Origin: an uncultured Verrucomicrobiae bacterium
Lineage (GTDB): Bacteria; Chlamydiota; Chlamydiia; Chlamydiales; Rhabdochlamydiaceae
Length of the DNA: 64,000 bases
Reading direction: 5' to 3'
NCBI GenBank assembly: GCA_963707995.1
Contig: OY970179.1
Location: forward strand, 1,424,266 to 1,488,265
The position numbers and the translations under genes were made by a program. Shown here in pieces: positions 12,831-44,910 of this stretch. The notes under the pieces were generated by a model that was not told the DNA's origin, made no database searches, and saw only the letters and a program-made list of their open reading frames with translations. Within the stretch, counting starts at the first letter, position 1. Each line of letters starts with the position of its first letter.

Positions 12831-14609
12831 CTTCTTCTCTTCCTCCAATTTGATGAGCGTCTCATAGAGCTTTTGCAGCTCTTTCTCCCTTTGTCCGCAT
12901 GATTTTAAAAGCTCTTGAATCTTTTCCACTTCTGCACGATGGGAAGCTTCGATGAGCTGTTGATTCTCACGCGCTTGCTCCTCTTCCAACTCCATGATTT
13001 TCTTTTCAGTTTTACCTATCTCATTCTCGAGTGGTCTTATCCTTGCTCTCATCGCCATCAGTTCTTCATGTTTCTTTTTGCGGCTTTCAGAACCACCCGA
13101 CTTTGCCTTCATAGAAATCGCTTCTTCTTCCCAACCCACCTTTTCGAGAAAATCTTCATAATGGCCTAAAAAAAGTTCCTGCCTACTCACATGGCAGACA
13201 ATCAGTTTATGGAGCGCCAGCCGCTTCAAGATCAATTCGCTATGCGTAACGATCACAACAGCCCCTTCGAAATCCTCTAGAGCATCGATCAGCGCTTCGA
13301 TCGATTCAACGTCGAGATGATGGGTCGGCTCATCGAGCAGAAGCAGGTTGCATGGCTTAGCTAGAATTTTCCCAAGGAGGACCCGACTCTTTTCTCCTCC
13401 AGAAAGGACAGAAATTTTCTTTTTTGCGGCATCTCCACCAAACATCATTTGCCCACAAATGCTTTTCACATCCGTTAAATTTAAAGTCGGGTTTGCCACA
13501 GAGATCTCTTCTTCAATGGTCGCCGAGTCCTTTAGTCTTTGGATATTCGTCTGGCCGAAATAGCCGATCGATGCCGCTTCAGAGACACGGACCTCCCCTT
13601 TAAGCGGCCCCAATTCCCCAGAGATCAGACGCAAAAGAGTCGACTTGCCATAACCATTTTTTCCAATGATCGCAATTCTCTCTCCCTTCTCGATGGCGAG
13701 CGAAAATTCGTGAATGATCGGTTTTTCCATCTCATAAGAAAAAACGATCTCTTTCACTTCCACCATTTTCTTCCCCATGAATGGACGTTCATGGAAATTG
13801 AAATTGAGATTGTATAGATTCTTAAGTTCTTCTAATGCAGGGATTCTCCCTAGCATCTTTTGTCGTGATTGCGCCTGTGCCGCCTTCGATGCCTTAGCGC
13901 CAAAACGATCGATGTACGACTGAAGATGGGCCTTTTTCTTCTCCAAGTTTTGACGAGTCCGTGCATAAATCTCTTCTTCTTGAATGACCCGCTCAAAAAA
14001 AACGGTGGTTCCCCCTTTGACTTTTTTGACTTTTTTCCGATGAACTCCCAACGTGTGGGTCGTCACATCATCCATGAACTCCCGATCGTGAGAGATCAAA
14101 ATCAGTTCCCCTTTCCATTGCTTTAGGAAGCGAGAAAGAAAACGGATCGAAAGAATATCTAGATAGTTAGTCGGCTCATCCAAAAGCAAACAATCAGGTT
14201 CAGAGAGTAAAACTTTAGCCAAATGAAGCCTTAACTGGAACCCACCCGACATTTGCTGAGGTGAAAGCTCCATCTCTTCCTCTTTAAACCCCAGCCCGGA
14301 AAGGATCGCTTCAGCTCGGTAGGTCTCTTCCCGCTCCTCAGCTTTCAAACCCAGGCACGCCTCCTCTAAAACTGTCGGCAGTGAAAAACGGATATGCTGA
14401 TCGAGATATCCCAACTGATATCCTTTGGAGAAAGAGATCGTCCCCCGATCTGCCGTTTCCTGACCCACGAGAAGGCGGAGCAGCGTCGTTTTACCCGAGC
14501 CATTCCGTCCGATCAGACCACACCGCTCTTTTGGGTTGATGGTGAACGAAACATTTTCAAGGACTGGCTCGCCACTATAGGAGAGTGTTAGATCATCAAT
14601 TTGAATCAT
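12810..14609 (-). CDS. ABC-F family ATPase (two ABC domains, no TM domain, C-terminal coiled coil; Uup/EttA-like)
   Basis: 599 aa. Two Walker A motifs, 'GRNGSGKTTLL' and 'GKNGYGKSTLL'. Two ABC signatures, 'LSGGFQLRL' and 'LSGGEKSRV'. The C-terminal tail 'MELEEEQARENQQL...' is charged and helical. Confidence 0.85.
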   Translation of the reverse strand: MIQIDDLTLSYSGEPVLENVSFTINPKERCGLIGRNGSGKTTLLRLLVGQETADRGTISFSKGYQLGYLDQHIRFSLPTVLEEACLGLKAEEREETYRAEAILSGLGFKEEEMELSPQQMSGGFQLRLHLAKVLLSEPDCLLLDEPTNYLDILSIRFLSRFLKQWKGELILISHDREFMDDVTTHTLGVHRKKVKKVKGGTTVFFERVIQEEEIYARTRQNLEKKKAHLQSYIDRFGAKASKAAQAQSRQKMLGRIPALEELKNLYNLNFNFHERPFMGKKMVEVKEIVFSYEMEKPIIHEFSLAIEKGERIAIIGKNGYGKSTLLRLISGELGPLKGEVRVSEAASIGYFGQTNIQRLKDSATIEEEISVANPTLNLTDVKSICGQMMFGGDAAKKKISVLSGGEKSRVLLGKILAKPCNLLLLDEPTHHLDVESIEALIDALEDFEGAVVIVTHSELILKRLALHKLIVCHVSRQELFLGHYEDFLEKVGWEEEAISMKAKSGGSESRKKKHEELMAMRARIRPLENEIGKTEKKIMELEEEQARENQQLIEASHRAEVEKIQELLKSCGQREKELQKLYETLIKLEEEKKQLNLPQ

Positions 14610-14625
14610 CGAATCAGATTACCAT

Positions 14626-14800
14626 AAGAACCTATCTCAGTAAAATTTTTCGTCGATTTTCGGGATTATTTTGGCCGATTTTCGATCCAAATTCGGGGGG
14701 TAATATCAAACATGCGTATATTACCCCCCGAATTTGGATCGAAAATCGGCTCAAAAGAACCCGAAAATCGACTGAAACTTTTTACTGAGATAGGTTCAGC
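14626..14800. repeat. ~175-bp nested palindrome in the divergent promoter region between the ABC-F gene and ORF 14821
   Basis: The outer arms are 'gaacctatctcagtaaaatttttcgtcgattttcggg' and its reverse complement at 14756-14798. The inner arms 'ccgattttcgatccaaattcggggggtaatat' / 'atattaccccccgaatttggatcgaaaatcgg' form a perfect 32-bp pair around 14706-14711. Confidence 0.7.
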
Positions 14801-14820
14801 GTCCAAGAAGGAATAAATCA

Positions 14821-15735
14821 TTGAAATTATTTGATTTTTCCAGTGAGATGGTCTACATGCAAAAAAGAGTTCTTTTCAAAGCATTGTTGTGCATGCCTGC
14901 CATTCTTTTGGGACATGAGATTGAGAAGGCGGAGGCTCTCCCGATAGGAAATTTCTCTGTTCCCTTCATGACCCAAGTTGGCCCCTTGATCAGTTTTGGC
15001 CAGCTTCTCATCGGCGAAAAGGCCCTTCTTCCTCAGTTGACGGGAGCTTATACTCGAGGAGATCACAGCTATTCTAATCTGATCGCACCGAGTGTTACCT
15101 ATGGGATTCTAGACGATCTTTCCGTTTTTTTCTTCGTCCCCTTCACCCCCAGAAGCCGATCGGGCTCATCACATTCTTCGGGGATCGAGGACATTTTACT
15201 TCAATTCGAATATGGATTCTATAACAAGAGCCGTACAGACTACACCCTGGAAGCAACCGTAGTTGCTAATGTGCAATTTCCCACAGGATCGAGTTCGAAA
15301 ACTCCCCCGACTGGAATTGGATCATTCGGTTATTTCTTAGGAACGACATATGTTTACATGTCGTCTAATTGGTATGCCTTTGTTTCCCCTGGCGTGAACC
15401 TAACGACAACCCATCACGGCACAAAATTTGGGAATTCCTATCTCTATCAATGGGGCTTTGCACGGTATATCAAGCAGCTCAGCCCACGGGGATGGATCTT
15501 TGATTTGATGATCGAATTCGATGGAACCTATGCCGAAAAAAGCAAAATTCATGGCGTAACAGACTCCGATTCGGGTGGAAATATCATTTTTGTAACCCCT
15601 AGTATCTGGTTGTCATCCAAACGATGGATTTTCCAATGGGGTATCGGTTTTCCTCTAGTGCAGAACTTGAACGGACATCAGAACAAAATCAGATATTCGA
15701 TCGATTATAATTTAGGGATAGCCGTGCAATTCTAA
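14821..15735 (+). CDS. Hypothetical outer-membrane beta-barrel-like protein (terminal Phe)
   Basis: 304 aa with a signal-like 'MQKRVLFKALLCMPAILLG'. It shows the alternating aromatic/polar content of a beta-barrel and ends '...GIAVQF', the C-terminal aromatic residue typical of outer-membrane proteins. The start may be the internal Met at 14857. Confidence 0.4.
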   Translation: MKLFDFSSEMVYMQKRVLFKALLCMPAILLGHEIEKAEALPIGNFSVPFMTQVGPLISFGQLLIGEKALLPQLTGAYTRGDHSYSNLIAPSVTYGILDDLSVFFFVPFTPRSRSGSSHSSGIEDILLQFEYGFYNKSRTDYTLEATVVANVQFPTGSSSKTPPTGIGSFGYFLGTTYVYMSSNWYAFVSPGVNLTTTHHGTKFGNSYLYQWGFARYIKQLSPRGWIFDLMIEFDGTYAEKSKIHGVTDSDSGGNIIFVTPSIWLSSKRWIFQWGIGFPLVQNLNGHQNKIRYSIDYNLGIAVQF

Positions 15736-15807
15736 TAAAAAAATTTTGATTGCCTCGAAATTGGGAAAAAGTTACTTGTTACAATAAGTTAAGAGGAAAC
15801 GGGAATT

Positions 15808-16023
15808 ATGAAAAAGTATACTTTGCTCGGATTGCTCATTTTATGCGCGTGTGGCGGCCGCAATTACTATTATGATGGTGACGGTCATCGCCATTATTAC
15901 CATGATCATGACCATGATCATGACCATGACCATGGCCATGGTCATGGAGATGGCTATCATGGAGAGGGCCATGGAGAAGGTCATCATGAAGGTGGAAGCG
16001 GCGGTGGGGGACATCACCACTAA
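15808..16023 (+). CDS. Small His-rich lipoprotein (putative metal-binding or storage protein)
   Basis: 71 aa. 'MKKYTLLGLLILCACGG' is a signal peptide plus lipobox Cys. The rest is (HD)n/(HG)n, 'HDHDHDHDHDHGHGHGDGYHGEGHGEGHHEGGSGGGGHHH'. There is an RBS-like 'aagaggaaacgg' upstream. Confidence 0.55.
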   Translation: MKKYTLLGLLILCACGGRNYYYDGDGHRHYYHDHDHDHDHDHGHGHGDGYHGEGHGEGHHEGGSGGGGHHH

Positions 16024-17009
16024 TCAAATCGTTTAGTCTCCCATCCTTCTTTCAGAAGTGGGAGACTAAAGTTCAGGAATTCCTCAAAATGGGTATAGGT
16101 GGTCGTCAACATCGTTTGGCGTTGGATCATCGATGCTGCATTGGCCTTAAATAGAAAACCCATCAATTGTTTCATTTTATTGATCTTGAGCCGGATTGAA
16201 CTCTCTGGTGGAATTTGAGAGATGTAGACTTCGAGATAGCGCACAAGATCGTCCCACTGGGGTCGGTAAGGTTTTTTAGCAAAATGGGCGCGAATTTGAT
16301 GAAAAATGAAAGGATTGATCACACCTCCTCTGCCGATCATGAGCGCGTCACAACGCGTCTCTTTTAACATTTTGAGCGCATCTTCAATAGTGAGAATATC
16401 CCCATTGCCCACCAATGGAATCTTCAAAAATGATTTAGCTTCTCCGATTAAGTCCCATCTGGCGGGAGGACCATACCCATCCACTTTTGTCCTTGGGTGT
16501 AAAGTGATGAACTTCACCCCACTTTCCTCTGCAGCGAGAAGATTTTCCTTAAATCGGGAAGTATCCTCATAACCTGAACGCATCTTGATGGTGACAGGAA
16601 TAGAAACCGCCTTGACCATGGCCTTTGCCACCTGATGCAAAAGATCGGGATCTTTGAGAAGGCTAGAACCAGCTCCTCGTCCCGTCACCGTATTCGAAGG
16701 GCATCCACAGTTCAAATCGATCCGAGGAGCTCCCCTCCTTTCTACCTCCACCGCCATGGCAGCCATCAGCTCACAGTCTGATCCCATCAGCTGAACGGCG
16801 AGTGGAATGGGGGCTATTTCATTAGCCTCGTAAGCTTTAGCCAAGCTTTGAACGTGGGCATTCGATGGGACACGAAGAAAATCGGTCACCCCTTCATCAA
16901 AACCACCGACTGTGGCCATCGCCTTGCGAAAACAGCGATCTCCCACTCCCTCCATAGGAGCGAGAAAAAGATAAGGACATCCATTGAGATCTTTAGGCAA
17001 AAAGGTCAT
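16020..17009 (-). CDS. tRNA-dihydrouridine synthase (Dus family)
   Basis: 'LAPMEGVGDRCFR', 'IDLNCGCP' and 'ITLHPRT' are Dus/TIM-barrel FMN motifs. Confidence 0.85.
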   Translation of the reverse strand: MTFLPKDLNGCPYLFLAPMEGVGDRCFRKAMATVGGFDEGVTDFLRVPSNAHVQSLAKAYEANEIAPIPLAVQLMGSDCELMAAMAVEVERRGAPRIDLNCGCPSNTVTGRGAGSSLLKDPDLLHQVAKAMVKAVSIPVTIKMRSGYEDTSRFKENLLAAEESGVKFITLHPRTKVDGYGPPARWDLIGEAKSFLKIPLVGNGDILTIEDALKMLKETRCDALMIGRGGVINPFIFHQIRAHFAKKPYRPQWDDLVRYLEVYISQIPPESSIRLKINKMKQLMGFLFKANAASMIQRQTMLTTTYTHFEEFLNFSLPLLKEGWETKRFD

Positions 17010-17043
17010 AATGAGGAGAGAGATTTTACGCGAAAAAAAGGAA

Positions 17044-17070
17044 TATATCCAAGTGAATTCAAAATTTGAT
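17044..17070. repeat. Solo terminal inverted repeat of MITE family A
   Basis: 'atatccaagtgaattcaaaatttgatc' resembles the family A end 'atacccaagtgaattcaaaaatcgg'. Confidence 0.4.
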
Positions 17071-18447
17071 CAGGTACTCTAGAGCCTTTTTTTGTTCCTC
17101 ATGAGCTAAAGAACAAACGGCATAAAGCGGCCTGGAATCGATTTTTTGCCATTGAGAATAGCTTTGTTCAGAGAATCGTATGCCGTAAGATGAGTCAGGA
17201 TGTGCCTCCAAAAACATAAGCATGCTTCTTAGCGTTCTCCCATCGCCACTTTTAACTTCAATCGGAACAATCTTTCGATTGTACTCATAGAGAAAATCAA
17301 CTTCTGCCGTGCTGCTTTTTGCCTGACGCTTCCAAAAATATAGATCTGATTTTTGATAAGGATTGGAATAACAAAGCAATTCTTGCCCAACAAACGCCTC
17401 TGCTATTGGTCCGCGATTGATAAACTCAGGTCCAGGCTGTAAAAACCATGTCGACAAATCAAATCCCAAAGCTGCCTGAGAAAGCGCAATATCAACCAAG
17501 ATGAGTTTAAACCATTCCAAATTCGCCTCAGCTCCGAGAGGAATGCCATTGCCAGCGCTATGATGAATTTTATGTACCACATTGGCTTTGCATAGCAAAT
17601 CCAGACAAGGAGCGAGATCCCTTTTTCTGAATTCACCATGAATGTTGCTATATCGAAATTCTTCTCCAATCATGTGGGGTATTTGACGAAAAAGTGTCTC
17701 AACGAACTCTGTCTGATGTTTAGTTGCATATTTTTCAATATCTTGTCGATATGATGTAATCAGGTTGTGATGAATCTGAAAACTCTCTTTTGGATTTTTC
17801 TCATCCACCCATTTTGCTATCGCTTCTGGCATGCCACCAATGGCAAAATATTCACCAATCAAATCAATCAGCAATTGATGAATTGGCTCAGAAAATGATT
17901 CGTTATGAATATTCTCCAAAATAGCCTTTGCACTTCCTATATTCCCGCTCGCAGCTAAATACTCTAGAAACGACATCGGATACATATACATACTCGAAAC
18001 ACGTCCAACAGGAAGCCCCACTTTTTCCAGAGCAAAATCGAAAAGCGAACCTGCCGCAATAACATGCAATTGAGGCATCTGTTCATAAAAATAACGGAGT
18101 GCCAAAATCGCTTCTGGAGCTTCTTGAATCTCATCAAAAAACAGCAATGTTTCTCCAGGAATGATTTTAGCCCTACCAGCAAATACGGCAAGTTCTCGTA
18201 AAATCCTTTCTGGATTAAGATCTTTCTCAAAAATCAACTTTATGTCTTTTGCCAGTTCAAAATTAACCTCGATTACATGGTCAAAACGTTTTCCCAACTG
18301 CCTCACTGCATGCGTTTTTCCTACCTGACGAGCACCACGAAGCAGCAAAGGTTTGCGGTATTTATGATCCTTCCAGTTCTCAAGATGCCAATCGATCAGA
18401 CGCTTAAACATTGTTTCTCCTGTCAACTTACAAGGTAATTTTATCAC
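17059..18447 (-). CDS. AAA+ ATPase of the AAA_14/DUF4143 family
   Basis: 'LLLRGARQVGKTHAV' is a Walker A motif and 'LLFFDEIQ' a Walker B motif. The C-terminal region has a DUF4143-like layout. Confidence 0.75.
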   Translation of the reverse strand: MIKLPCKLTGETMFKRLIDWHLENWKDHKYRKPLLLRGARQVGKTHAVRQLGKRFDHVIEVNFELAKDIKLIFEKDLNPERILRELAVFAGRAKIIPGETLLFFDEIQEAPEAILALRYFYEQMPQLHVIAAGSLFDFALEKVGLPVGRVSSMYMYPMSFLEYLAASGNIGSAKAILENIHNESFSEPIHQLLIDLIGEYFAIGGMPEAIAKWVDEKNPKESFQIHHNLITSYRQDIEKYATKHQTEFVETLFRQIPHMIGEEFRYSNIHGEFRKRDLAPCLDLLCKANVVHKIHHSAGNGIPLGAEANLEWFKLILVDIALSQAALGFDLSTWFLQPGPEFINRGPIAEAFVGQELLCYSNPYQKSDLYFWKRQAKSSTAEVDFLYEYNRKIVPIEVKSGDGRTLRSMLMFLEAHPDSSYGIRFSEQSYSQWQKIDSRPLYAVCSLAHEEQKKALEYLIKF

Positions 18448-18652
18448 AAAAATGGTCTAAAAGAAAGGATAATTTTCTAAGAGACTTATTATAAACAAGT
18501 TAACTATAATTTTTACCTTTCAAAAAGACTAAAATTACGTAAAATTAATGGTTTTTTCCTAAAAGGAAAGGTAATTTTCATCGTTTTTCTGTCAAATGGC
18601 AAGATCAGAGCCTGTCTAGGCTATTTCTCGAGGTAGTTTCTGTATAAAACCA

Positions 18653-37916: not shown

Positions 37917-40304
37917 ATGGCGAAGAACACTGAGGTGGCAAAGAAAAAGTCGGGACTCCCAGCAGAAGTAAAAGGATTGCTTCTCCTCGGTTTTTCTCTG
38001 TTCCTTTTGCTGAGCTTGCTGAGCTTCCATAGCCTGGATGCTGGCAAAAACTGGCTGGGTCTCATCGGCTGGGGCGTGGCTTGGGGATTTAATTACTTTT
38101 TTGGATTGACAAGCTATTTGATCATCCTTTTTTTGGGCTGGCTCGGTTGGCAATTTCTTTTGAGGCGGGAGATCCCAACACTCACTTCCAAGACGATCTA
38201 CTTTGGAATTTTACTCGTCTCCTCCGCTTTGCTGTTAAATCTTTTTGCCGAATTGGGTTTGCCCTTAGTGTCCCTTCTTGAGAATAAGATCTATTCAGAA
38301 ACACACCTTTTCGATTTCCCTTACCCCCATCACACAAGCCGTTATAACTTAGGTGGAGTTCCCTTTTATTACCTTTATCGCGATCTTCCAACTTTCAACC
38401 TGCAACGGCTGTTCAGCGATGTCGGGATCGGGCTGACTTTTTCGATCACTGCGATTGTCTCTTTCCTTTTGCTCACTGAAATCGAGCTGATCCCTATTTT
38501 GACTGCAATCAAGGAAAAATTCAGATCTTCTAAAACAAAGATCACCGATCTTCTGAATAAGCCTCAGCAAGAGAAGGAATTTTCACGATCCTCTCCAAAA
38601 ACGGCAGACGAAATCGAAAATGCTCTTCTCAAACGACTTCCTCAGCCGATTTACCAGCCTCGCAAAGAAAAAGAGGATCAGGTGAAAATCTGGACAATGC
38701 ATGACAAGAGCGATGGGGAGAAAAAAATAACGCCCGACCCAAAATCTTCCCCTCTGAATAAACGGCAAGCAGCGCTGAGTGCCCAAAAAGTTGTGAATGG
38801 AGATTTCACTACCTATCAGTTACCCCCCCCTTCTCTGCTGAACAATCCTAAAAAAGTCGATCAACCCTCTCTAAAAAAGGATCTCAAGCGGCAAGCGGAG
38901 ATCCTCGAAGAGACTCTGATGAGCTTCGGGATTGAAGCTAAAGTCGGAGAGATCAATTGCGGACCGACGATCACCTCTTTTGAAGTCCATCCTGCGGTGG
39001 GTGTCAAAGTGCAAAAGATAAAAACACTCGAAAATGACATCGCACTCAACCTTCAAGCTAAATCGATCCGGATTATCGCCCCTATCCCTGGCAAAGCTGC
39101 CATCGGCGTCGAGGTCCCCTCTCTCTATCCACAAGAGGTTAGCTTCAAAGAGCTGCATTTGGGTTATCATCAAAGTCCCCGCAAAATGATGGTCCCTCTT
39201 TTGCTTGGAAAGACTGTCTCCGGTGACAACGTCATCAGCGACCTCAGCAAAATGCCCCATTGCCTGATCGCAGGAGCAACCGGATCTGGAAAATCGGTCT
39301 GTATCAACACTGTGATCATGTCGATTCTGATGAACGCTCGGCCAGATGAAATTAAACTGGTGATGATCGATCCTAAAAAAGTTGAATTGACACCCTACAC
39401 CCACCTCCCTCACATGATCGCGCCCGTGATCACTGAAGCGCATGGGGCTTATGCAGCGCTCAGTTGGCTTGTGAAGGAGATGCAAACCCGTTACGACATT
39501 TTAAAGCAGCTCGGCCTGCGCAATATCACTGCTTTTAACAATCGGCACATCAATGCCGAGCTTGAGTCCTCTTTAAGTATCCCTGTCCCGATTAAAATGT
39601 ATGCGATCGTAGCGATCATCGACGAGTTTGCCGATTTGATGATGGCCTCGAGCTCAGATCTAGAAACGCCGATCGCCCGTATTGCGCAAATGGCCCGCGC
39701 TGTGGGGATCCATTTGATCCTCGCCACCCAACGACCTTCTCGAGAAGTGATCACAGGTCTCATCAAAGCTAACTTCCCCACTCGGATCGCCTTTAAAGTC
39801 GCTAGCCGTATCAATTCACAAATCATTCTCGACGATGTGGGAGCAGAAAGCCTTCTGGGCAATGGGGACATGCTTTTCTTGCCGCCTGGGACCTCCACCC
39901 TGGTCCGTGCTCAAGGCGCCTATATCAGCGATGAAGAGATCAATCGGATCGTCTCTTTTATCTGCGCACAATCCCCTCCTAATTACCTGATCGAATCTTT
40001 CGACAAGATGCGCCTCGAAGATTCCCCTTCAGGTGACGGAGGGGAAGATAGTCCAAAGGACACTCTTTATGAGCAGGCATTTGCGATCGCTGTCGAAACG
40101 CGCACGGCATCCACGACTTACTTGCAGCGTAAGCTTAAAATCGGTTATCCTAGAGCTGCCTCATTGATGGATGAGCTCGAGGCCAAAGGCGTGATTGGAC
40201 CCCAAGAAGGAGCCAAGGCTCGGCGGATATTGGTCGATTCTAAAATTGCAATTCCTTCTTCCAAACCTGGGAACCCCTATGAAGAACAAGAGCTTTTTGA
40301 ATAA
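37917..40304 (+). CDS. ftsK: DNA translocase FtsK/SpoIIIE
   Basis: An N-terminal 4-TM domain and a Pro/Gln-rich linker are followed by 'LIAGATGSGKSV' (Walker A), 'VAIIDEFADL' (Walker B) and a C-terminal gamma domain 'YLQRKLKIGYPRAASLMDELE'. Confidence 0.9.
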   Translation: MAKNTEVAKKKSGLPAEVKGLLLLGFSLFLLLSLLSFHSLDAGKNWLGLIGWGVAWGFNYFFGLTSYLIILFLGWLGWQFLLRREIPTLTSKTIYFGILLVSSALLLNLFAELGLPLVSLLENKIYSETHLFDFPYPHHTSRYNLGGVPFYYLYRDLPTFNLQRLFSDVGIGLTFSITAIVSFLLLTEIELIPILTAIKEKFRSSKTKITDLLNKPQQEKEFSRSSPKTADEIENALLKRLPQPIYQPRKEKEDQVKIWTMHDKSDGEKKITPDPKSSPLNKRQAALSAQKVVNGDFTTYQLPPPSLLNNPKKVDQPSLKKDLKRQAEILEETLMSFGIEAKVGEINCGPTITSFEVHPAVGVKVQKIKTLENDIALNLQAKSIRIIAPIPGKAAIGVEVPSLYPQEVSFKELHLGYHQSPRKMMVPLLLGKTVSGDNVISDLSKMPHCLIAGATGSGKSVCINTVIMSILMNARPDEIKLVMIDPKKVELTPYTHLPHMIAPVITEAHGAYAALSWLVKEMQTRYDILKQLGLRNITAFNNRHINAELESSLSIPVPIKMYAIVAIIDEFADLMMASSSDLETPIARIAQMARAVGIHLILATQRPSREVITGLIKANFPTRIAFKVASRINSQIILDDVGAESLLGNGDMLFLPPGTSTLVRAQGAYISDEEINRIVSFICAQSPPNYLIESFDKMRLEDSPSGDGGEDSPKDTLYEQAFAIAVETRTASTTYLQRKLKIGYPRAASLMDELEAKGVIGPQEGAKARRILVDSKIAIPSSKPGNPYEEQELFE

Positions 40305-40689
40305 ACTTGAAAAACTTAAAGCCGAGGTTCCCGTCCAACTCGACACCGAGCGAAAGTTATTACCCCGCCTGAAATTCATGGGGTATGTGATGCTTGTCTT
40401 ATGTCTAACAACTGCCGTTTATGCCATGACGATCAAAGAGGAAACAGAGATCATTCAACCTTTGCCGCAGGAAGGATTGATTGAACCTGAACAGATGGAA
40501 GCAGTTTCTGGATTTGAATTGTTCCCTGAAGAGGGCGAACTCGAATTGACTCCTAATGAAGTGCTCAATTTTTATCTCGTCGCCTTTATCTTTGCTATCG
40601 TCGGCGCAACGTGCTTCCTTATCGTCTGGAAAAAAAAGAAAAGACTTTTTTTAAATTTACACAGAGATCACAGAGACACAGAGCTTTAA
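40279..40689 (+). CDS. Hypothetical small membrane protein
   Basis: I take the start at the internal 'MKNKSFLNKLEKL'. It has two hydrophobic segments. The 3' end runs into palindrome 40660-40759. It overlaps the ftsK stop. Confidence 0.3.
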   Translation: MKNKSFLNKLEKLKAEVPVQLDTERKLLPRLKFMGYVMLVLCLTTAVYAMTIKEETEIIQPLPQEGLIEPEQMEAVSGFELFPEEGELELTPNEVLNFYLVAFIFAIVGATCFLIVWKKKKRLFLNLHRDHRDTEL

Positions 40690-40759
40690 GTTTTTCATTT
40701 TTTGCGAGAGCAAAAAATGAGGTTGTTTTTTTAATCTCTGTGTCTCTGTGATCTCTGTG
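40660..40759. repeat. Perfect palindrome, CACAGAG-type family
   Basis: 'acacagagatcacagagacacagag' ... 'ctctgtgtctctgtgatctctgtg', with an AT-rich 50-bp spacer that is itself palindromic ('caaaaaatga'). Confidence 0.7.
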
Positions 40760-44605: not shown

Positions 44606-44620
44606 ATAAACATTATGAAT

Positions 44621-44752
44621 TTCTCTACCACCCGTTCGCTCCGCTCACTAGAGGGCACAGAGGACACAGAGAAAGAATCAAATACTGTAACAGTCTGACC
44701 CTCTCTGTGTCCTCTGTGCCCTCTAGTGAGCGGAGCGAACGGGTGGTGAAAA
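44621..44752. repeat. 132-bp near-perfect palindrome with ~48-bp arms, CACAGAG-type family
   Basis: 'ccacccgttcgctccgctcactagagggcacagaggacacagaga' ... 'ctctctgtgtcctctgtgccctctagtgagcggagcgaacgggtgg'. Confidence 0.75.
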
Positions 44753-44910
44753 TATTTTCTTAAATGTTTTGTAACCAGTTATAATGTCATTTTATTTTCT
44801 TCTTCAAGTTAAATTCTGTTCACAAATAATTGCTCAATCTCAACATAAAAATAAACATTTTGACAAAATTCATAAAAAAATGTTTTATACATTTAATAAA
44901 GGAGGAAACA

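Follow-up and report, generated by a model that had tools for sequence, protein, structure and literature searches.

Two short His-rich reading frames

The window analysed here is a 64,000-nucleotide stretch of contig OY970179.1 (assembly GCA_963707995.1, positions 1,424,266 to 1,488,265 of the forward strand) from an uncultured bacterium of the Rhabdochlamydiaceae. It contains two open reading frames, ORF1 and ORF2, that encode small His-rich proteins with export-type N-termini. Both lie where a preliminary description, made from the sequence alone, had placed them, and no other frame in the 64 kb is strongly His-rich apart from their own alternative or antisense frames. The features of the two loci, in window coordinates, are listed below.

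14857..15735, plus strand: partner gene, predicted to encode a 292-residue, 12-stranded outer-membrane β-barrel (AlphaFold2, AF2, and Foldseek)
15741..15797, plus strand: conserved upstream block (..TTGATTGCC..GAAATT..AAAAAGTTAC, the last at 15766-15775) with the Shine–Dalgarno (SD)-like sequence AAGAGGA (15791-15797)
15808..16023, plus strand: ORF1, a 71-residue prolipoprotein gene (translation and homologues)
15901..15948, plus strand: hexanucleotide tract (CATGAY)5(CATGGN)3 encoding (HD)5(HG)3 (Tandem Repeats Finder, TRF, period 6/12 over 15899-15946)
20678..20825, no strand: 148-nt near-perfect hairpin directly upstream of the SD sequence of ORF2 (inverted repeat; fold −96.7 kcal/mol, z = −13.6)
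20847..21077, plus strand: ORF2, a 76-residue protein with a tail ending in HHWW (translation and conspecific contigs)
20943..21068, plus strand: His/Asp tract of ORF2, about 2.6 copies of a 42-nt unit (14 residues, DDDDHHDDDYHHHH)

Each frame is preceded by a purine-rich SD-like sequence, in agreement with the preliminary description: AAGAGGA at 15791-15797 for ORF1 and GGAGAGG at 20835-20841 for ORF2.

The product of ORF1 is MKKYTLLGLLILCAC|GGRNYYYDGDGHRHYY(HD)5(HG)3DGYHGEGHGEGHHEGGSGGGGHHH or, uncut, MKKYTLLGLLILCACGGRNYYYDGDGHRHYY followed by the same repeats and tail. In bacterial lipoprotein signals (PROSITE PS51257), a basic n-region is followed by a hydrophobic h-region and then by the lipobox [LVI][ASTVI..][GAS]C, whose Cys falls at about residues 15-35. 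The N-terminus of ORF1, MKK-YTLLGLLIL-CAC, conforms to this rule. The lipobox is L-C-A-C, and its Cys15 is encoded by codon 15850-15852. The predicted mature peptide comprises 57 residues and is rich in His, Gly, Asp, and Tyr; it contains two Arg only. The His content, given earlier as about 40%, is lower: 17 of the 71 residues are His (24%), corresponding to 30% of the mature peptide, and a value of about 38% is reached in the tail only. Gly is as frequent as His (19 residues). In the AF2 single-sequence model, the signal helix alone is ordered (predicted local distance difference test, pLDDT, 57; predicted template modelling score, pTM, 0.18). The model is weak evidence, consistent with the prediction that the mature peptide is disordered.

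The (HD)n tract varies among near-identical strains. Alleles with (HD)5, (HD)3, and (HD)2 encode proteins of 71, 67, and 65 residues, all in frame, and the strain alleles seen vary by whole HD units only. The preliminary description had proposed to look for such variation in tract length, and also for loss or interruption of the loci in close relatives. Both ORFs are present and intact there; in the close strains, the proteins encoded next to ORF1 are 96-100% identical.

ORF1 and its homologues

Searches with ORF1 give zero matches in a 5.8-billion-sequence library and in a 1.84-billion-representative library, and exact look-ups of six variants find none of them in the protein collection. Neither Pfam nor NCBIfam has a family model for it. 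In a local phmmer comparison, the conspecific variants and the homologue at L071 (L-numbers are labels of loci in related genomes) would score significantly were they in the library, indicating that the nulls reflect missing entries rather than absence in nature. Because the protein libraries are uninformative, we searched for homologues at the DNA level, by synteny via homologues of the barrel and of HemB, by contig look-ups, and by one degenerate-pattern scan of metagenome contigs.

The family comprises 13 distinct members from 11 lineages: one each from the window, L063, L071, L072, L073, L074, L077, L078/L079, and L081, and two tandem copies each from L082 and L083. Every member starts with a lipoprotein signal in which MKKY or MLKKY precedes L-x-x-C. 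All 13 have the lipobox Cys, which occurs in the variants LCAC, LSAC, LYAC, LCSC, LSSC, and VITC; this bears out the earlier assignment of ORF1 as a lipoprotein by sequence criteria. The signal is followed by a Tyr/Asp-rich YYxDGYY segment, a middle part of His, Asp, Glu, and Arg (once Lys), and a (Gly3-5 His1-2)n tail in all members. Most members contain 30-40% His, with HxH and GGGH repeats, and carry a net negative charge. SD-like motifs precede most of the homologues.

In the first 17 codons, ORF1 differs from the L074 homologue by seven synonymous changes and one non-synonymous change, and from the L071 homologue by eight and two, respectively. The excess of synonymous changes indicates purifying selection on the translated signal peptide. 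Of the frames at this locus, the lipoprotein frame alone is conserved across species. Thus, the alternative and antisense frames are artefacts, as had been proposed, and gene callers err here: wrong frames are picked at L002, L077, L082, and L083, which explains why the family is unannotated. As the frame is conserved across 11 lineages, ORF1 is certainly a genuine gene and not a chance opening in repeat DNA. Judged by its sequence, it founds an unannotated family, so far seen in one Rhabdochlamydiaceae clade only.

The tandem copies follow the barrel gene in both L082 and L083, and their tails differ in chemistry. In L082, one tail is acidic (His/Asp/Glu) and the other Gly/His-rich; in L083, one is Lys/His-rich and the other Gly/His-rich. 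The two stretches, both on the minus strand of their contigs, are arranged as follows.

L082, 10135-12498: P2-type ATPase
L082, 9035-10036: barrel
L082, 8972-8640 and ~8630-8287: two copies of the His-rich lipoprotein gene
L083, ~10583-10052: tandem copies

Upstream block of ORF1

The block upstream of ORF1 can be aligned between the window, L073, L071, L074, and L077; L081, where the barrel gene is missing, retains it as well. Within about 45 nt, it holds the motif AAAAAGTTAY, found at 15766-15775 in the window and also in L071, L073, L074, L077, L078, and L081. In most ORF1 homologues, the motif is positioned 26-33 nt before the start codon. It fits the σ70, σ28, and σ54 consensus sequences poorly, and a promoter and terminator consensus scan gave no more sites than in shuffled sequence. 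Because the block is conserved in most lineages including L081, ORF1 may have its own promoter or operator, for which the block is a sequence-based candidate. By eye, it contains no dyad resembling the Fur box reported for Hrl, a mycoplasma lipoprotein described below. A leader peptide of the his-operon type was rejected for ORF1, in view of the conserved lipoprotein signal and the lack of his genes downstream.

A predicted outer-membrane barrel is paired with ORF1

The barrel gene and ORF1 share a strand and are separated by 72 nt, the barrel gene being upstream; its neighbours are ABC-F, ORF1, and Dus. The encoded protein starts with a signal peptide, contains an FPTG motif, and ends in Phe. 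The ORF1 homologue directly follows a barrel gene on the same strand in 10 of the 11 lineages. The pairing persists while the flanking genes (Dus, AAA-14, DUF2608, GNAT, and hemB) come and go. The barrels are of two very divergent types, one in the window and L063 and the second in all other lineages, which are related only at the profile level (hhalign E 3e-4) and have FPTG in common.

The AF2 model of the window barrel (pLDDT 81) contains about 12 long strands. Its top Foldseek match is FapF (5o68; E 1e-11, template modelling score, TM, 0.64-0.74), and the COG4313 channel Pput2725 (4rl8) also matches (E 5e-10, TM 0.67/0.73). FapF is an amyloid polypeptide exporter (PMC5557850), and the COG4313 channels include Pput2725 and SphA (PMC4493636). 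The barrel is therefore predicted to fold like both. A conserved 35-residue segment precedes strand 1, with pLDDT below 50 for residues 18-33. By analogy with COG4313 channels, this segment may occlude the lumen.

The window barrel has no Pfam match even at E ≤ 1, PF13557 included. Among its 146 homologues, a few, P0062 and P0080 among them, are flagged PF13557, and one carries the JGI name 'MetA-pathway of phenol degradation'. The homologues occur in Chlamydiae, Legionella, Coxiellaceae, Dependentiae/Babeliales, and some metagenome-assembled genomes labelled proteobacteria (loci L014-L070). Many of these groups live intracellularly in amoebae, and the shared lifestyle suggests that genes are exchanged in this niche. 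The syntenic barrels of the window and L063 are only 46% identical, against 79-86% for the ABC-F, MFS, and HemB proteins around them; copies in non-syntenic genomes reach 81% identity. Downstream of 57 barrel homologues in genomes, a His-rich ORF is found only at L063.

The pairing raises the possibility that the barrel exports ORF1. In this explanation, a FapF-like barrel would thread or export the disordered His-rich lipopeptide to the cell surface. The peptide could then serve there, and not in the periplasm, as a variable antigen, in host contact, or in capturing metal. The substrates that FapF exports are unfolded and come from its own operon, and its PTG motifs are conserved (PMC5557850). 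FPTG is present in both barrel types. FapF polypeptide-transporter chains are the best structural matches of the barrel. In accordance, disorder is predicted for the putative cargo, which is encoded beside the barrel in 10 of the 11 lineages, evolves fast, varies in length between strains, and is duplicated in tandem in L082 and L083. However, the barrel lacks FapF's long N-terminal coiled-coil domain, with only about 35 residues before strand 1, and no fap-like genes are nearby. The small-molecule channel Pput2725 matches the barrel equally well (TM 0.67-0.73). Moreover, homologous barrels in at least 50 other genomes have no such neighbour, and the L081 peptide is present without a barrel. 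We regard export by the barrel as the main rival to the metal-binding reading developed below, but an unlikely one.

A bolder form of the same idea is that the barrel and the disordered His-rich lipopeptide constitute a dedicated two-gene module for surface display, the hypervariable and at times duplicated His-rich tail acting as a tethered, protein-based metallophore or as a host-contact element. This is less likely still. If true, the surface lipoprotein would depend on its barrel and form a new class that differs from Slam/SLP and from Fap. The repeated pairing with ORF1 also hints at an unrecognised job for the barrel family with the FapF/COG4313 fold.

ORF2 is a probable second gene

ORF2 consists of MLNVCIMLGLLFVAPSLRAPANTGEKQDQRLV and a 44-residue His/Asp tail ending in WW. 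Its hydrophobic N-terminus, MLNVCIMLGLLFVAPS, has a possible signal-peptidase I site after A-P-S. The content of His plus Asp had been put at about 60%; it is 50% for the whole protein and rises to 63% in its predicted mature part, which has a strongly acidic tail. TRF reports a period of 42 with 83% matches over 20943-21052. Matches of ORF2 to Pfam and NCBIfam models (DUF2946 and AtcA) are sub-threshold noise. In particular, DUF2946 (PF11162) was rejected, as the match, at 19.8 bits (E 0.0014), stays below the Pfam gathering threshold of 23.7 and is driven by the hydrophobic N-terminus and His.

Five conspecific contigs carry the frame intact, with six amino-acid substitutions. The strains differ at 11 nucleotides, 10 of them in the N-terminal third; seven of the differences are non-synonymous and four synonymous. 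The tract of about 130 nt shows one strain substitution, compared with about 12 in the 260 nt of intergenic DNA upstream.

A positional homologue of ORF2 lies after the SWIB gene of L078, convergent with it. L078 represents a different species (HemB 82% identical).

L078, 5885-5586, minus strand: 99-residue positional homologue of ORF2 beside the SWIB gene, with N-terminus MLQLCAILGILFFTPA and a strong SD sequence

The first 16 residues of MLQLCAILGILFFTPA and MLNVCIMLGLLFVAPS share eight positions, and most of the other differences are hydrophobic substitutions. A cleavage-type A/T-P-S/A motif is present at the same position in both proteins. No hairpin such as that before ORF2 is found upstream of the L078 homologue.

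ORF2 could instead be a spurious or very young frame in tandem-repeat DNA, without a functional product, located in a spacer inflated by hairpins. Between the YbaK gene and hemB, L074 and L075 have a spacer of 86 nt; in the window the spacer is 690 nt long and accommodates ORF2 as well as two hairpin elements. The divergence of the N-terminal part between strains (seven non-synonymous and four synonymous differences) is not clearly below neutral, the BLASTP match to the L078 protein falls short of significance, and one annotation pipeline calls the antisense frame at the locus. On the other hand, every strain has the frame intact, with a strong SD sequence before it, and the tract is about five times less diverged than the adjoining intergenic DNA. 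The L078 protein beside SWIB shares not only the eight of 16 N-terminal residues but also the position of the predicted cleavage site, the SD sequence, and a His-rich tail. A spurious frame is improbable for ORF2, and it is not proposed for ORF1. We consider ORF2 to be probably a real gene, and rate it as lineage-restricted, young, and fast-evolving.

The N-terminus MLNVCIMLGLLFVAPS resembles MLKKCSLIGLVILCAC of an ORF1 family member in L082. As part of the bolder surface-display reading above, ORF2 could be a paralogue of ORF1 that has lost the lipobox Cys and is released as a soluble protein.

The gene divergent from ORF2 encodes HemB (19405-20397), which carries a Cys-rich DLCFCEYTDHGHCG motif. 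Motifs of this kind are typical of zinc-dependent porphobilinogen synthases. Its adjacency to the His/Asp-rich ORF2 may be coincidental.

Proposed function in metal binding

We propose that ORF1 is a genuine prolipoprotein that acts as an envelope-tethered metal binder beside the barrel, and that ORF2 is a second exported, His/Asp-rich protein and a probable cation binder. We hold this combined reading with middling confidence, and prefer it to the others considered here. In this model, ORF1 would be exported by the Sec pathway and lipidated at Cys15, which would leave a disordered peptide of 57 residues tethered in the cell envelope. The (His-X)n and Gly(n)-His motifs of the peptide would bind divalent transition metals reversibly and multivalently. 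Repeats of (His-X)n and Gly-His in acidic, disordered peptides are good multivalent ligands of Zn2+, Ni2+, Co2+, and Cu2+. From composition and analogy, we infer metal binding by ORF1, most likely of zinc; Zn2+ would be the first candidate, and Ni2+, Co2+, and Cu2+ are possible. Located next to the barrel, the peptide could serve as a tethered metal sponge or antenna that buffers metal or hands it on, in uptake or in detoxification, perhaps in functional coupling with the barrel. It would then be a lipid-anchored counterpart, standing on its own, of the ZnuA His-rich loop or of Hrl. ORF2, which by sequence criteria would be exported through a signal-peptidase-I-type N-terminus, is probably a cation binder of high capacity.

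A number of observations weigh against this reading. With neither ORF do we find a metal transporter gene, a metalloregulator gene, a recognisable Fur/Zur-type box, or a riboswitch. Since no metal-related neighbour, riboswitch, or metalloregulator box is found, metal sequestration is inferred from composition. Two ORF1 members are far poorer in His than the others (16-17%), and one tandem copy is Lys-rich. The L081 homologue of ORF1 has no barrel gene, and the adjacency elsewhere could in part be inherited synteny within one clade. COG4313 channels are thought to import hydrophobic molecules, not metals (PMC4493636). Pfam profiling of the 100 immediate neighbours of 53 barrel homologues reveals no recurring family and no consistent metal context; P-type ATPase domains occur in only about three cases. 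We reject this profiling as evidence either for or against a metal role. As a single case, the barrel gene and the two ORF1 copies of L082 come immediately after a gene for a P2-type cation ATPase.

ORF2 lacks a positively charged n-region, and no significant similarity to the L078 protein is detected by BLASTP. ORF2 is absent at the equivalent site in L063, L073, L074, L077, and L080, and from the YbaK-hemB gap of L075. In addition, the tail of the L078 protein is His-rich but basic (Lys/Arg/His/Asp), whereas that of ORF2 is acidic. What is conserved may therefore be disorder together with His rather than a defined metal site.

Another explanation lies outside metal homeostasis. His/Gly/Tyr tails, with a side-chain pKa of about 6, could be pH-responsive or structural elements of the envelope that, for example, buffer or sense acidification of the vacuole or self-associate. 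The Gly/His/Tyr-rich peptides of squid beak and the plant shepherins self-associate in a pH-dependent manner. The ORF1 family keeps its composition and disorder but no fixed motif, and Gly and Tyr are conserved like His (YYxDGYY and (GGGH)n). Some members are His-poor, and no metal genes are linked to the family, which further suits this explanation. However, it is an analogy only, tails of this chemistry are good metal ligands as well, and no genes for envelope structure are linked. We judge it quite unlikely, the least likely of the alternatives weighed here, and retain metal binding as the preferred function.

Comparison with known His-rich proteins

Hpn and Hpn-2 of gastric Helicobacter are small, His-rich, Ni-binding proteins (PMC4671568), and the likeness of ORF1 and ORF2 to them had been pointed out in the preliminary description. 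The likeness holds in composition, as both pairs are tiny (about 60-70 residues), His-rich, of low complexity, and lineage-restricted; it does not extend to family models, as neither ORF has a Pfam or NCBIfam match to Hpn. Hpn and Hpn-2 store and buffer metal through many weak His sites, a role that ORF1 and ORF2 might share. They are cytoplasmic and lack signal peptides, whereas ORF1 and ORF2 have export-type N-termini and are rich in Gly, Asp, and Tyr. Hpn and Hpn-2 also contain Cys pairs and Gln runs. We know of no nickel enzyme (urease or hydrogenase) in chlamydiae that an Hpn-like protein could serve.

Hrl of Mycoplasma genitalium and M. pneumoniae (MG149 and MPN162, respectively) is a His-rich lipoprotein that is Fur-/metal-regulated and tied to Ni acquisition (PMC6968530, PMC8566771). 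As described, Hrl is like ORF1 in being a lipoprotein with a His-rich region from a host-dependent bacterium with a reduced genome, and it is proposed to capture Ni for a transporter. It differs in that its host is wall-less and has no outer membrane, and in that it is associated with an importer of the energy-coupling factor (ECF)/CbiMNQO type rather than with a barrel.

The His-rich loop of ZnuA and the His-rich N-terminus of ZinT function in zinc uptake (PMC3872050). These flexible periplasmic segments, rich in His, Asp, and Glu, recruit Zn2+ near the transporter, and (HD)n(HG)n of ORF1 resembles a free-standing loop of this kind. However, the ZnuA/ZinT loop belongs to a folded binding protein that works with an ABC importer, whereas ORF1 consists of a tail plus a lipid anchor and has no znu genes nearby. 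SilE, PcoE, and ZraP, which are small, exported, and in the metal-free state mostly disordered, act as first-line metal sponges of the periplasm. Unlike ORF1, they are soluble, have Met/His motifs, and are encoded in metal-resistance operons under metal-sensing two-component systems. Neither ORF1 nor ORF2 matches a SilE, PcoE, or ZraP family model.

The partner barrel resembles FapF and the COG4313 channels in its predicted 12-stranded fold and its PTG motif, and the Fap barrel gene adjoins genes for unfolded substrates as the barrel gene adjoins ORF1. Unlike FapF, the partner barrel has no coiled-coil domain and is not part of a fapA-F operon; the fold alone is shared. Among His-rich metal-binding micro-proteins, the lipid anchoring of ORF1 and its near-constant pairing with a barrel of the FapF/COG4313 fold are unusual.

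Transition-metal acquisition and resistance of environmental chlamydiae in amoebal or arthropod vacuoles are largely unknown, and an exported, lipid-anchored family such as ORF1, paired with an outer-membrane channel, would provide a concrete, testable component. At least one genus of Rhabdochlamydiaceae grows in cell culture; to our knowledge, no cultured strain carries ORF1 or ORF2. The absence of both from very large protein libraries, Pfam, and NCBIfam exposes a blind spot. Together with the mis-framing by gene callers, it indicates that low-complexity micro-proteins are systematically missed.

A frameshifted P-type ATPase gene and the riboswitch scans

The preliminary description had connected the His-rich ORFs with a frameshifted P1B-4 (Co/Zn/Fe-class) exporter in the window. 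A frameshifted P-type ATPase gene is present at 56707-58733. It is separated from ORF1 and ORF2 by 36-41 kb and shows no connection with either.

56707-57417 and 57516-58733: frameshifted P-type ATPase with SPC, DKTGT, and GDGIND motifs, frame break near 57375 (motif scan)

The break falls in an A/G-rich run (..KKKG|DEV..), and the 5′ end overlaps a palindromic element (56593-56760). The frameshift could reflect a real pseudogene or a homopolymer sequencing error. The frame at 37917-40304, considered as an ATPase, is FtsK, and several other large ORFs are unrelated enzymes. A scan of the whole window at the Rfam gathering threshold detects one tRNA only and no metal riboswitch. A lenient scan of 14500-21200 yields only sub-threshold matches to generic hairpins.

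Palindromic elements and other genes

Near-perfect palindromic elements of 100-170 nt, resembling miniature inverted-repeat transposable elements, stud the intergenic regions of the genome. At least eight lie in the window.

14628-14797: palindromic element
20416-20586: palindromic element
20678-20825: palindromic element, the hairpin before ORF2
40660-40759: palindromic element
44618-44756: palindromic element
48578-48759: palindromic element
55655-55819: palindromic element
56593-56760: palindromic element, at the 5′ end of the ATPase gene

The element at 20416-20586 is missing in strains that are otherwise 95-99% identical, indicating a recent insertion. As the window contains at least eight similar elements, one of them strain-polymorphic, a role of the ORF2 hairpin as a specific regulator is ruled out. 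In L081, which represents another species, a 25-nt arm of the element at 14628-14797 (gtcgattttcgggttcttttgagcc) recurs upstream of the ORF1 homologue.

The AAA_14/DUF4143 ATPase gene between Dus and DUF2608 (17059-18447) is intact in the window and split into three ORFs in L009 (5599-6951). It is missing at that position in L072, L073, L077, L078, L081, L082, and L083.

Two adjoining genes, 29178-30230 and 30208-31488, encode Legionella-type major outer-membrane proteins (PF05150). Two further proteins are eukaryote-like: a 712-residue WD40 β-propeller (33279-35417) and a 485-residue protein combining NADAR and protein-tyrosine-phosphatase domains (59665-61122). Both are possible host-interaction effectors. 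F-box/WD40 proteins are also encoded near the syntenic locus in L063 and L080.

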